A stretch of DNA of 64,000 nucleotides from Escherichia phage momo (MN850580.1), one strand, 5' to 3'. Counted from the first letter of the stretch, positions 60,096 through 63,094 are shown. Notes: generated from the sequence alone by a model not told the origin. Made by a program: numbers and translations.

Positions 60096-61877
60096 TTAAA
60101 GCTGCTTGTCAATATTATTTCGAATATCTCCAAGAGTTGTATAACCGAACTGCTCAGAGTCGCTAAAGACTAAACGTAAAGCACAAGCTTGGTGGTCAAG
60201 TACATCTGCAAAACTCTGGAATCCATAGCCATCTACAGCTTTCAGCTTATCACCATCCCACATAGGTGCTACACCACCAAAGGCAGATTTCTTAACACCA
60301 CTATCTGTTTTAGGGTCTTTTGCAAGCATAATCTCTTTACCACCAATGCTTGCAAGAGTTGCTTTGACAGCAAATGCGAAGGTGTCACGAGTCATGTACT
60401 GGTAAGTGTAAGAGCCTACACCAAACACTACGTTAGAGCTTGCAAAACCCATTTCATACAGACGCTTCAGGATTTCGTTTGCACGTTCCAGCGTGATAGA
60501 GTCACCATAGATAAGGCCGATGTGCTCATCCAGTACCTTAAACCCTTTAGAGTTAATAGTCCCTCCGAAGATGTTGTACAGGGTCTTAATAGCTCCATCA
60601 ATCTCAGCTACAGGACGTGTTACAACGTTTGCAGAACCAACCATATAAGCGTTTTTCAACAGCACTGTATCAGCAACTTCAAAGTCTTCTCTGTCAACAA
60701 CCATTTCGTAGCCTTCTGACAGTAGCCATCCAGCAATACCATAATTGATGTTTTCAAGCTTCATGTTCAGAACAGCATTCAACATTGTGTCGCTGGCTTC
60801 AAGCTTGCTTAAGTGTTTGTAATAAGCCTTTTTAGCACATTCTAAGTGGATTGCTTTATAACCTGTGACAATATGTACAGGGTCTCCAGAGTCAGGACGA
60901 ATTACCAGTTTGCCATCACGTTCCATAATTTCTTTACGAAGTGCTGGTAAAATTTCTGACACAGTTCTCCAGAAGTTATAAGTGTCTGAAACAACACTTG
61001 CAATACCAGTTGGGTAAGTTTCTGTTAAGAAACGACGGAAGGTTTGTAACTCACCTTTAAAGCGTCTTTCTTCTTCAATCAACTCATTACCACCTTCCCA
61101 AGCAATGTTTGCACACATTACAGAGTGCTCAGTGGCTGGTACAGAGCTACCAATATCAGAGATTGGGTAGGACTGTCCATAGATTCGTTTAGCCGTATAC
61201 ACAGCAGGGAAGCTATCAGTTCCTTTAAAGCTGGTTAAGTGGCCTACAGCGTTAAATGCGTCATCAGTAAAGCCGGACATACCACGCATAGCAAAGTCAT
61301 GGCACTGATAAGGCAAATGCAAGTCGTTGTCACAAGTAAGGTCAGCCCACTTCTTACAGATACGTTTGTAGTGCAATGCAATAGTTGCAATGGTACAAGC
61401 CTTCCAAATCTCAGCAGAGAAAGCATCTTCCAGATACCCCGCTACCCAATGGAAGCCTGAAACAGTGTTCTGGAAGACAATCATTGGGACGCGCATAGGG
61501 ACAACTGTACCTTCTTCTACAGCGTATACTTCAACTGGTAGATAACCTAAGTCGTGAAGTGCTTCCCAGTGCTCTCGACCGATAGCATCTTTACCCAGAA
61601 CACCATTCATGACTTCTAAGATTTCATCAATGGCTTCTTTTTTATCACGTTCAAAGAAAGTGGCGTTCCAGTGGTCTATCAAGTAATCTTTAACGAAACG
61701 TTGAATACCAAAAGCCACTACACCGTCAATTGCCAAAGGGCTGTTAAACCATTTATCACTACGTGGTGTCAGGTTCAACATAAGATATTGCGTAGCATCT
61801 GGATACTGATATATATGTGATGCCTTGTAAGCATCTGCATTAAGACCTGCTGGTACTGCGTAAAGTGATTTAGTCAT
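60096..61877 (-). CDS. nadV: nicotinamide phosphoribosyltransferase family protein (NadV/Nampt-like; alternatively Namat)
   Basis: 593 aa; N-terminal YKASHIYQYP and overall Nampt-like features. Confidence 0.75.
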   Translation of the reverse strand: MTKSLYAVPAGLNADAYKASHIYQYPDATQYLMLNLTPRSDKWFNSPLAIDGVVAFGIQRFVKDYLIDHWNATFFERDKKEAIDEILEVMNGVLGKDAIGREHWEALHDLGYLPVEVYAVEEGTVVPMRVPMIVFQNTVSGFHWVAGYLEDAFSAEIWKACTIATIALHYKRICKKWADLTCDNDLHLPYQCHDFAMRGMSGFTDDAFNAVGHLTSFKGTDSFPAVYTAKRIYGQSYPISDIGSSVPATEHSVMCANIAWEGGNELIEEERRFKGELQTFRRFLTETYPTGIASVVSDTYNFWRTVSEILPALRKEIMERDGKLVIRPDSGDPVHIVTGYKAIHLECAKKAYYKHLSKLEASDTMLNAVLNMKLENINYGIAGWLLSEGYEMVVDREDFEVADTVLLKNAYMVGSANVVTRPVAEIDGAIKTLYNIFGGTINSKGFKVLDEHIGLIYGDSITLERANEILKRLYEMGFASSNVVFGVGSYTYQYMTRDTFAFAVKATLASIGGKEIMLAKDPKTDSGVKKSAFGGVAPMWDGDKLKAVDGYGFQSFADVLDHQACALRLVFSDSEQFGYTTLGDIRNNIDKQL

Positions 61878-61922
61878 CTTTTAATCTCTCTCAAAGTGGG
61901 GCTTTCAAGCCCCTATAAAGTT

Positions 61923-62819
61923 TCAATCAATGGTTGCTACAGTAACTTGGGCGTAATGTGTTAAGCCACGGTCTTTAGCTTCACCTAAAGTGTTTGTAGT
62001 GTAGATATGGTCAATACCGTTGTCAAGTAAGTTTTCAACACCTTTAGAGAAAATACCATGAGTTACATAGAGTTCCACACGTTTTGCACCTGCTTCACGT
62101 AGGTGTTTAGCTGCCTCTACGAAGGTTCGACCACCATCACAGATATCATCAAGAATCATGACAGTTTTATCGGTCAAATCAACATCGTCAAGGATTCGCA
62201 TACCAGTGATTTCTCCAGTCTTAAGATTGCGCACCTTAGACATTGTGATATACGGTTTATCCACCTCTTTAGCGGTATCTTCAGTCTTCTTAGCTGCACC
62301 TGCATCTGGGGCTACCAAGAAATCAATGCGTGGGTCACTTGCAAAGTGTACTGCCACATCTTTTTGCTTCATGCTTTGAAAGCACTTAAATAAGTTTTCT
62401 GCAACATTACTGTGAGGGTCAAGAGCACATACTGCATCAAAACCCATTGCATTAACTAGGTTGGCAAAGACTTTCAGTGCTGCTGCATCACCTTTGAACA
62501 TGTGGCGGTCATATCGAGCATTTGGTAAGAACCCGAAAACAACGGTTTTCATCGCTGATTTCTGGGGAACAAGACTGTCAACGGCATCCTTAGCCAAAGC
62601 TAATGCAAACAGTGTATCTTTGTCATATCCCTGTACAGTAATTATAACATTATCAATCTTACCAGCATTACGCTCAGTAAACTTAACAAAATCTTCAGAG
62701 AAGTTTCCACCAATTTCTCCAGATGGGAATTGAATGATATTAAATTTTTCTGTGTGGAAGAATTTCTCTTGAGCGGTGACGACGGCTTCAATAACAGTTT
62801 TCATAGTTTTCTCTCTCAA
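61923..62819 (-). CDS. prs: ribose-phosphate pyrophosphokinase family protein (Prs-like; alternatively ADP-ribose pyrophosphokinase)
   Basis: PRPP-binding-type loop MILDDICDGGRT; N-terminal nucleotide-binding region. Confidence 0.7.
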   Translation of the reverse strand: MREKTMKTVIEAVVTAQEKFFHTEKFNIIQFPSGEIGGNFSEDFVKFTERNAGKIDNVIITVQGYDKDTLFALALAKDAVDSLVPQKSAMKTVVFGFLPNARYDRHMFKGDAAALKVFANLVNAMGFDAVCALDPHSNVAENLFKCFQSMKQKDVAVHFASDPRIDFLVAPDAGAAKKTEDTAKEVDKPYITMSKVRNLKTGEITGMRILDDVDLTDKTVMILDDICDGGRTFVEAAKHLREAGAKRVELYVTHGIFSKGVENLLDNGIDHIYTTNTLGEAKDRGLTHYAQVTVATID

Positions 62820-63094
62820 TCAAAAGTTACGTTTGTTACTGCCATTGCAGATTTGCATTTTGCAGGGTCTACAACGTGATAAAGTACACTACAGTTACCT
62901 GTGCTGTCTGGTACAGGCTTTACCCATTGCTGCTTTATATTTGGCTCCCCTAAGTCTTTGTAAGAGCCATCTGTAAAGTTGTTTACCATCTCAAGTGCAA
63001 TTGGTTCTGGAACATGCCCACGTATCATGTACATTTCACAACCATTACCGCCTTCACTGACTAATGGTAAAATCTCCCACTTCTCTTTAGCCAT
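62816..63094 (-). CDS. hypothetical protein translationally coupled to Prs-like gene
   Basis: 92-aa ORF overlapping Prs-like start by 4 nt. Confidence 0.45.
   Translation of the reverse strand: MAKEKWEILPLVSEGGNGCEMYMIRGHVPEPIALEMVNNFTDGSYKDLGEPNIKQQWVKPVPDSTGNCSVLYHVVDPAKCKSAMAVTNVTFD

Follow-up and report, generated by a model that had tools for sequence, protein, structure and literature searches.

The closest described relatives of the locus considered here belong to NARP1, an operon discovered in genes 79–80 of phage Bas63 and tested there by deletion (Osterman et al., bioRxiv 10.1101/2024.02.11.579819; published in Nature in 2024, as cited in PMC12846349). The locus itself occupies positions 60,096–63,094 of a stretch of 64,000 nucleotides of DNA from Escherichia phage momo (MN850580.1), hereafter called the window, and comprises a gene of the phosphoribosyl pyrophosphate (PRPP) synthetase (Prs) family, a gene of the nicotinamide phosphoribosyltransferase (Nampt) family and a short upstream open reading frame (ORF) of 92 amino acids (aa). 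We identify it, with little room for doubt, as the NARP1 operon of a Felixounavirus, which encodes Adps and Namat and rebuilds nicotinamide adenine dinucleotide (NAD+) from ADP-ribose (ADPR) and nicotinamide. The system as such is already known: the founding paper and its tables contain the same genes at 98–100% protein identity. Reported in about 4% of sequenced phages, NARP1 ranks as a major counter-defence and brought to light two previously undescribed enzymatic reactions.

In Bas63, deletion of genes 79–80 lowers plating on SIR2-HerA about 20-fold and the wild-type phage partly restores NAD+; ADPR pyrophosphate (ADPR-PP) and its cyclic-phosphate breakdown product are seen if the operon and the defence system occur together, and not otherwise, and the anti-defence effect is independent of PncC and NadR, the host routes through nicotinamide mononucleotide (NMN) (10.1101/2024.02.11.579819). 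Reactions with purified enzymes were carried out with the homologs of Bacillus phage SpbetaL1, because the Bas63 protein 'did not purify well'; the SpbetaL1 enzymes convert ADPR and ATP into ADPR-PP, and ADPR-PP and nicotinamide into NAD+ (10.1101/2024.02.11.579819). Reconstitution of NAD+ in vitro has also been shown for the DyoEdafos and P. foliorum homologs, the purified-enzyme chemistry being known only from such more distant homologs (SpbetaL1, Gary and DyoEdafos). Other NARP1 operons, introduced by co-expression or knock-in, protected against type I Thoeris, DSR1, DSR2 and SEFIR; on co-expression these four defences were abolished, whereas type II Thoeris, which is not an NADase system, remained effective.

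The two genes adjoin each other on the minus strand, the 593-aa Nampt-family gene following the Prs-family gene, as had been described in a first-pass annotation made from the sequence alone. Judging from the profile matches, both family assignments lie far beyond chance and concern real genes, not chance ORFs: the Prs-family protein matches phrog_619 (E = 2.1e-99), TIGR01251 (1.7e-40) and the Pfam families Pribosyltran (PF00156) and Pribosyl_synth (PF14572), and the Nampt-family protein matches phrog_448, named 'nicotinamide phosphoribosyl transferase' (E = 3.8e-202), NF006629 (471 bits) and the Pfam families NAPRTase (4.6e-35) and NAMPT_N. Comparison with Bas63 yields 291 identical residues out of 293 (99%) between Adps and Bas63_0079, and 579 out of 593 (98%) between Namat and Bas63_0080. 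Moreover, Adps is 100% identical, residue for residue, to the protein of phage garuso in the Adps table of Osterman et al.; because its identity to the members listed in this published table is 99–100%, it can be placed in the Adps clade. On the shared strand, namat begins 45 nt past the end of adps, and 97% of the Adps-clade genes have a Namat homolog within 10 genes. Garuso and tootiki, the closest relatives, are listed in the published tables as containing Adps and 'Adps-associated' Namat.

Insight into the substrate of the second enzyme comes from the 2026 structure paper on Namat (PMC12774641), in which a selectivity clamp was defined. The clamp helix (SCH) has the signature GSX-phi-X-phi-X-phi-TRD, and the variable clamp loop (SCL) adds a stacking residue; the third residue of the loop is Arg, Lys or Tyr, the fourth one stacks if the third is Lys or Tyr, and Bas63 is cited as an example of the Lys type (PMC12774641). 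The Namat of the window carries GSYTYQYMTRD at residues 488–498 and an SCL reading TPRSDKWFNSPL (TPRSDK42W43FNSPL), which is the same as in Bas63; by its residues K42-W43 the loop obeys the Bas63-type rule of a Lys followed by a stacking residue, and stacking is predicted. The segment equivalent to the SCH reads GSFTYQYNTRD in SpbetaL1 Namat, GAQTYQRNTRD in Haemophilus ducreyi NadV and GGALLQKVDRD in Xanthomonas Nampt, so that the adenine-stacking positions, Tyr490 and Tyr494 in the window, are occupied by Gln and Arg in the NadV and by Ala and Lys in the Nampt. Since these control sequences are devoid of the adenine-stacking aromatics, the SCH motif separates Namat from true NadV and Nampt. 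The GS, the central Y and the TRD are kept in all 27 aligned Namat homologs, the other motif positions varying slightly. The catalytic and ligand positions known from the crystal structure are likewise all retained (D15, Y17, F195, R198, D221, A248, H251, R327, D329, G458, D459, G488, S489, T496, R497 and D498); R327 is the equivalent of SpbetaL1 R306, and H251, within a conserved PATEHS motif, is taken from the alignment to be at the position of the Nampt catalytic histidine.

The structural comparison points in the same direction. The best match of Namat among the sequences of solved structures is SpbetaL1 Namat (PDB 9w5w/9w5x), with 434 bits vs. 143 bits for human NAMPT. The AlphaFold model of the window protein has a predicted local distance difference test score (pLDDT) of 92.2 and a predicted template modelling (TM) score of 0.91, and a fold search with this model places the solved Namat 9w5w/9w5x first, at TM scores of 0.94–0.95, ahead of NadV and mammalian NAMPT. 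The first-pass annotation had called for precisely such a profile and structure comparison, which finds Namat closest to the solved Namat and the Prs-like protein, as described below, under every Prs equivalog cutoff. With SpbetaL1 NARP1 (PMC12774641) the locus shares the two-gene architecture, the catalytic residues, the SCH signature and the fold; it differs in that SpbetaL1 has Arg40 in the SCL whereas the window has Lys-Trp, and in that the window Namat contains two insertions of about 72 and about 14 aa. The resemblance with Bas63 NARP1 is much closer, extending to the genus, the gene order, the hairpin in the spacer, the flanking genes, the SCH motif, the SCL and the Namat insertion, and the differences are 2 amino-acid substitutions in Adps, 14 in Namat and one gene past Namat that the window lacks (see below). 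The window is indeed that of a Felixounavirus, collinear in reverse orientation with the Bas63/JohannRWettstein genome (61 of 64 kb aligned, 94.4% mean DNA identity).

For Adps, the most likely start, on sequence grounds, is the ATG at 62804, giving 293 aa, rather than the TTG at 62819, giving 298 aa, because a Shine-Dalgarno element GAGAGAG, found also ahead of the Namat start codon, is located 6 nt before this ATG and because the 293-aa form is used in the Bas63 record and in the published tables. The ORF of 298 aa that had been delineated at first (62819..61923) does exist, but it appears to begin too early. The Lys and Arg of the catalytic flexible loop (SKVR, K190 and R192) align with K194 and R196 of human PRPS1; the catalytic flexible-loop Lys of the characterised homologs is K162 in SpbetaL1 and K192 in Gary. 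Adps stays below every NCBIfam Prs equivalog cutoff, the best model being NF002095 (113.8 bits vs. a cutoff of 296), and the only NCBIfam Prs model that it passes is the broad subfamily TIGR01251 (138.8 bits vs. 113). Its ribose-5-phosphate loop reads DDICDGGRT, the usual form in Prs being DDxxDTxGT. Among PDB sequences no solved Adps structure was found, the best match being an archaeal Prs (70 bits), and the papers searched yielded no published structural determinants of Adps; how the enzyme accepts ADPR can therefore only be inferred.

In the pathway proposed for this locus, NAD-depleting defences with SIR2-, TIR- or SEFIR-type effectors split NAD+ into ADPR and nicotinamide. Adps would then transfer pyrophosphate from ATP to the free ribose of ADPR, yielding ADPR-PP, and Namat would let nicotinamide displace the pyrophosphate, yielding NAD+ directly; an NMN adenylyltransferase (NMNAT) would thus not be needed. 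Rebuilding of NAD+ from ADPR had been put forward in the first-pass annotation as one of two readings, and it is borne out by the 98–99% identity to Bas63_0079 and Bas63_0080 together with the Namat-specific selectivity motif. The same annotation held that the chemistry could not be told from the sequence by eye; with comparison tools it becomes decidable, by way of the orthology with Bas63 and the selectivity motif.

The other reading, canonical salvage, has become highly improbable; here the Prs-like enzyme would supply PRPP from ribose-5-phosphate for NMN synthesis by the Nampt-like one, with host NadR or PncC completing NAD+. Canonical salvage agrees with the names that every general-purpose library (Pfam, NCBIfam, PHROG) gives to the two genes, and Namat passes the NF006629 cutoff of 405 bits; this model, on the other hand, does not separate Namat from Nampt. 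Against canonical salvage stand the Bas63 proteins, 98–99% identical, whose anti-defence effect required neither PncC nor NadR and with which ADPR-PP accumulated, as well as SpbetaL1 Adps, which gave no product in an assay for canonical Prs activity, and Namat, which when given both substrates produced NAD+ only. The adenine-clamp motif, present in the window Namat and absent from true NadV and Nampt, and the scores and unusual ribose-5-phosphate loop of the Prs-like protein argue in the same sense. A canonical class I Prs was thus discarded, the score lying under the curated equivalog threshold, and likewise a canonical Nampt/NadV, the helix equivalent to the SCH containing the aromatics Tyr490 and Tyr494. 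Cellular Prs and NadV/Nampt have the folds, the catalytic machinery and the library names in common with the two proteins of the window, but they use ribose-5-phosphate and PRPP where NARP1 uses ADPR and ADPR-PP, and their NadV/Nampt lack the adenine-stacking aromatics.

Two sorts of searches bear on NMNAT: a Pfam inventory of the 63 non-structural ORFs of the window, which lie outside the virion-gene block at 5.6–28.6 kb, and scans with NMNAT and Nudix signature expressions in six frames of the window and of the whole Bas63 genome. The statement that no NMNAT is recognisable in the window holds, since the 63 ORFs contain no CTP_transf_like domain (PF01467) and the motif scan gives 0 hits. An NMNAT gene elsewhere, which would complete ordinary salvage, was looked for in the Bas63 genome, where no such gene is annotated and the NMNAT and Nudix motifs again give 0 hits; neither motif is found in the window. 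As no NMNAT was found in the scanned ORFs and in the motif scans, and as Adps is present, NARP2 (Nampt plus NMNAT) was ruled out, and the result fits a direct conversion of ADPR-PP into NAD+. Indeed, NARP2 of Vibrio phage KVP40 (Nampt plus a bifunctional NMNAT) likewise counters NAD+ depletion with a Nampt-family enzyme, but it needs PRPP and NMNAT and works without Adps, whereas the window has Adps, a Namat-type clamp and no recognised NMNAT. The inventory of the 63 ORFs also shows no NUDIX and no RyR (PF02026) domain, and neither a Nudix nor a RyR gene is annotated in Bas63. A RyDEP-extended NARP1, which has a RyR-domain glycosidase within its locus, was rejected because the RyR domain is missing from the scanned ORFs.

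Several points nevertheless weigh against NAD+ reconstitution by these exact proteins. The in vitro chemistry rests on homologs whose Namat is 37–39% identical to that of the window by structural alignment, purified-protein assays having been done with them in place of the Bas63 enzyme (10.1101/2024.02.11.579819), and Namat homologs keep PRPP-dependent NMN synthesis in vitro (PMC12774641), so that the window Namat may have a minor canonical, PRPP-dependent activity. The window Namat also differs from that of Bas63 at the 14 positions mentioned and carries the insertion of about 72 aa. For the genes of this very phage, function is deduced from the orthologues, and we infer that its Adps and Namat act as those do. 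The assignment has the consequence that the library names 'ribose-phosphate pyrophosphokinase' and 'nicotinamide phosphoribosyltransferase' are to be replaced by Adps and Namat, and it predicts that the phage escapes NAD+ depletion by SIR2-, TIR- and SEFIR-based systems. What the locus may add to present knowledge is peripheral and concerns the Felixounavirus-type Namat insertion of about 72 aa and a distal macrodomain protein of the Adpp/AdfM family. The features discussed are collected in Table 1.

Table 1. Features of the NARP1 locus and of related genes in the window (window coordinates)
Feature	Position	Strand	Remarks
adps, predicted ADP-ribose pyrophosphokinase (ADPR-PP synthetase)	61923..62804	-	293 aa, ATG 62804; orthology to Bas63_0079
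namat, predicted nicotinamide ADP-ribose transferase	60096..61877	-	593 aa; orthology to Bas63_0080 and clamp motifs
Lineage-specific insertion subdomain in Namat, aa 344–426	60600..60848	-	Alignment of 27 homologs; about 72 residues more than SpbetaL1/bacterial Namat
adps-namat spacer	61878..61922	-	45 nt; read from the sequence
92-aa ORF (phrog_4726, bas63_0078 orthologue)	62816..63094	-	91/92 identical to bas63_0078; no Pfam match
171-aa ORF (phrog_3500, weak HNH-like)	63087..63602	-	Heads the probable transcription unit
Terminator-like hairpin at the end of the preceding gene, upstream of the unit	63620..63642	-	Consensus scan only
Terminator-like hairpin, 10-bp stem then T-run, 12 nt past the Namat stop	60061..60084	-	Consensus scan only
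Macro-domain protein (bas63_0095 'putative phosphatase' orthologue)	51531..52316	-	261 aa; Pfam Macro 32.3 bits (cutoff 22)

Compared with SpbetaL1 or bacterial Namat, the Felixounavirus-type protein has about 100 additional aa, mainly owing to the insertion of about 72 aa, which follows RPDSGDPVHIVTG. This insertion is modelled with confidence as a small alpha/beta unit (pLDDT 93–96), and it is conserved, with a core GY(E/D)(M/L)(V/I)V, in all long forms of the Ounavirinae type. Other phage Namats contain unrelated insertions of 49–96 aa at the same site, aa 344–426. The second insertion, of about 14 aa at residues 258–272, has, like the first, no counterpart in the crystallised SpbetaL1 Namat or in the bacterial homologs; the structure paper (PMC12774641) contains no discussion of Namat insertions. 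Bacterial NARP1 homologs have already been reported (PMC12774641). Chromosomal enterobacterial proteins of 496 aa called 'nicotinate phosphoribosyltransferases', at 46–48% identity, carry GSFTYQYNTRD and by this motif look like bacterial Namat and not NadV; examples among P0081–P0133 are those of Klebsiella michiganensis (P0082), Cronobacter malonaticus (P0099) and Kosakonia sacchari (P0120).

The spacer between adps and namat contains a hairpin GGGGCT-TGAA-AGCCCC at 61913–61898, followed by the Namat Shine-Dalgarno element GAGAGAGA at 61892–61885. The hairpin is kept in Bas63 and, with a variant loop, in a relative with proteins 75–78% identical (L007), and it is absent from two other relatives with spacers of 11–14 nt (L004 and L006); judged from its sequence, it could tune the ratio of Adps to Namat, either as an attenuator or as an mRNA-stability element. 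Upstream, the 171-aa and 92-aa ORFs overlap by 8 nt. The 92-aa ORF, first described as coupled to the Prs-like gene, does lie immediately upstream, but given the start at ATG 62804 it is separated from that gene by a gap of 11 nt instead of overlapping it by 4 nt. It is probably co-transcribed with adps and namat, and the terminator-like hairpin past the Namat stop, a consensus match, probably marks the end of the unit. The order 171-aa ORF, 92-aa ORF, Adps, Namat is kept in relatives down to 51–55% identity. In divergent relatives Namat is the best conserved protein of the neighbourhood (75–76%), Adps being at 51–78%, the 92-aa protein at 55–65% and rIIA at 52–63%. The 171-aa ORF is annotated as 'putative HNH homing endonuclease' in close relatives, and its position is kept in relatives at 51–75% identity; such a fixed position is unusual for a mobile endonuclease.

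This arrangement raises the question of whether the 171-aa and 92-aa proteins could be NARP1 accessory factors of a four-gene unit, for example by regulating it, by channelling substrates or by inhibiting a defence protein. The terminator-like hairpins bracket exactly these four genes, the spacing is tight, the gene order persists in the relatives just mentioned, and other phages insert accessory genes (Adpp, RyDEP) into their NARP1 operons. The bracketing terminators, however, are consensus matches only, and the 92-aa family, with 13 homolog clusters, is confined to one collinear phage lineage in which it always has the same position, so that synteny is silent on its function. Neither protein has a domain match, apart from the weak HNH-like one of the 171-aa protein; moreover, deletion of genes 79–80 alone gave the full phenotype in Bas63, and two-gene NARP1 operons of other phages countered defence systems when co-expressed. 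A role of the two proteins as accessory factors is therefore quite unlikely, and because the published phenotype needed only genes 79–80 we do not count their genes among the NARP1 components. Around the operon there are 16 promoter-like matches vs. 10.7 expected by chance, which is uninformative. The strongest sigma-70-like candidate in this region, TTGACA-16-TATGAT (11/12) at 60085–60112 on the minus strand, covers the last codons of Namat and abuts the hairpin at 60084–60061; it could be due to chance or be a promoter for the downstream 111-aa gene.

The window also encodes a Macro-domain protein that deserves attention with respect to NARP1-AP, the extended operon (Adps-Adpp-Namat) of Vibrio phage Gary. 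Adpp of Gary is a validated ADPR-1''-phosphate phosphatase that turns NARP1 into the aRES-resistant NARP1-AP, and mutation of its H24 and N27 abolished function (bioRxiv 10.64898/2026.01.28.702374). The criterion for NARP1-AP was a gene with a Macro domain (PF14519, PF01661 or PF20016) no more than two genes away from NARP1. No Macro match is found in the two neighbours on each side of the locus (the 171-aa, 92-aa, 111-aa and 58-aa ORFs), and the only Macro gene among the scanned ORFs of the window lies 7.8 kb, or 14 genes, downstream of Namat. The core of Adps and Namat is common to this locus and that of Gary, and an Adpp homolog is encoded in the window, but its gene stands outside the operon, and the protein is more distant from Adpp than from the macrodomain protein Tk.4/AdfM of phage T4, recently shown to protect T4 from DarTG2.

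We have considered whether, in the Felixounaviruses including Bas63, the Macro protein acts in trans as an Adpp-like phosphatase, dephosphorylating ADPR-1''-phosphate or otherwise freeing ADPR to feed Adps; together with NARP1 it would then form a functional NARP1-AP resisting aRES (RES-domain) defence. This extension, which is compatible with NARP1, is tentative and in our estimation rather unlikely. The protein belongs with Gary Adpp and T4 Tk.4/AdfM to phrog_335, shares its Pfam model with Adpp and aligns with it end to end (27% identity, E = 2e-13). The essential His and Asn of Adpp correspond to H25 and N28, invariant in 29 of 29 homologs, and the position matching the catalytic lysine of TARG1 and DarG is not conserved in the family. 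The NARP1-AP survey covered two genes on either side of NARP1, did not have Bas63 in its table and comprised no Felixounavirus in its phage panel; the cloned aRES systems come from E. coli, Klebsiella and Enterobacter, which overlap with the host range of this phage group. All this is offset by the closer similarity to Tk.4/AdfM (35% identity, E = 3e-24), in which the same His and Asn are kept as in the Adpp family, and by a beta-rich C-terminal domain of about 85–100 aa that Adpp does not have and that, among the 29 aligned homologs, occurs only in members of the Ounavirinae type. The family is present in 2,847 phage records, including T4-like phages, in which NARP1 is not known. A change of gene order bringing the Macro gene beside NARP1 was sought in distant relatives and not found, the distance remaining about 9 kb even where Namat is about 50% identical, so that synteny within the lineage is the sole link. 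In the fold comparison TARG1, DarG and Poa1p score nearly alike, and no one chemistry is favoured. Alternatively, by its sequence, the Macro protein may be an AdfM-like anti-DarTG2 factor, and one macrodomain family, phrog_335, may possibly serve both as Adpp phosphatase and as AdfM anti-DarTG2 glycohydrolase. If the protein did act in trans on the ADPR pool, Felixounaviruses would resist aRES-type RES defences in a manner overlooked by the two-gene NARP1-AP rule.

The Macro locus is also the site of variation within the genus. In a metagenomic Felixounavirus contig (L010) whose flanking genes are 91–100% identical to those of the window (99.3% for Namat), the Macro protein (L010:10001–10780) is only 41% identical, with the active-site motifs retained and the C-terminal domain almost entirely replaced. 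The sequences thus suggest that one allele has been exchanged for another at this locus, a kind of replacement typical of genes engaged in an arms race.

In the 4.2-kb region of the locus, 258 phage records match, nearly all of them from Felixounavirus, and the closest are tootiki (98.5% identity), garuso (98.2%) and Bas63/JohannRWettstein (96.2%). The flanks are organized as in Bas63, the NrdG/NrdD region preceding the locus and rIIA and rIIB following it. One difference from Bas63 is that the 345-bp hypothetical gene bas63_0081 (L001:3549–3893), located there between Namat and the 111-aa gene, is not present in the window (60043–60095); this indel directly adjoins the 3' end of the NARP1 unit. 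Finally, the record GU169904.1, 'Staphylococcus phage SA1' (147 kb), contains at 116109–120309 a Felixounavirus region including rIIA at 94.4% identity, and is probably a chimeric or mislabelled record.

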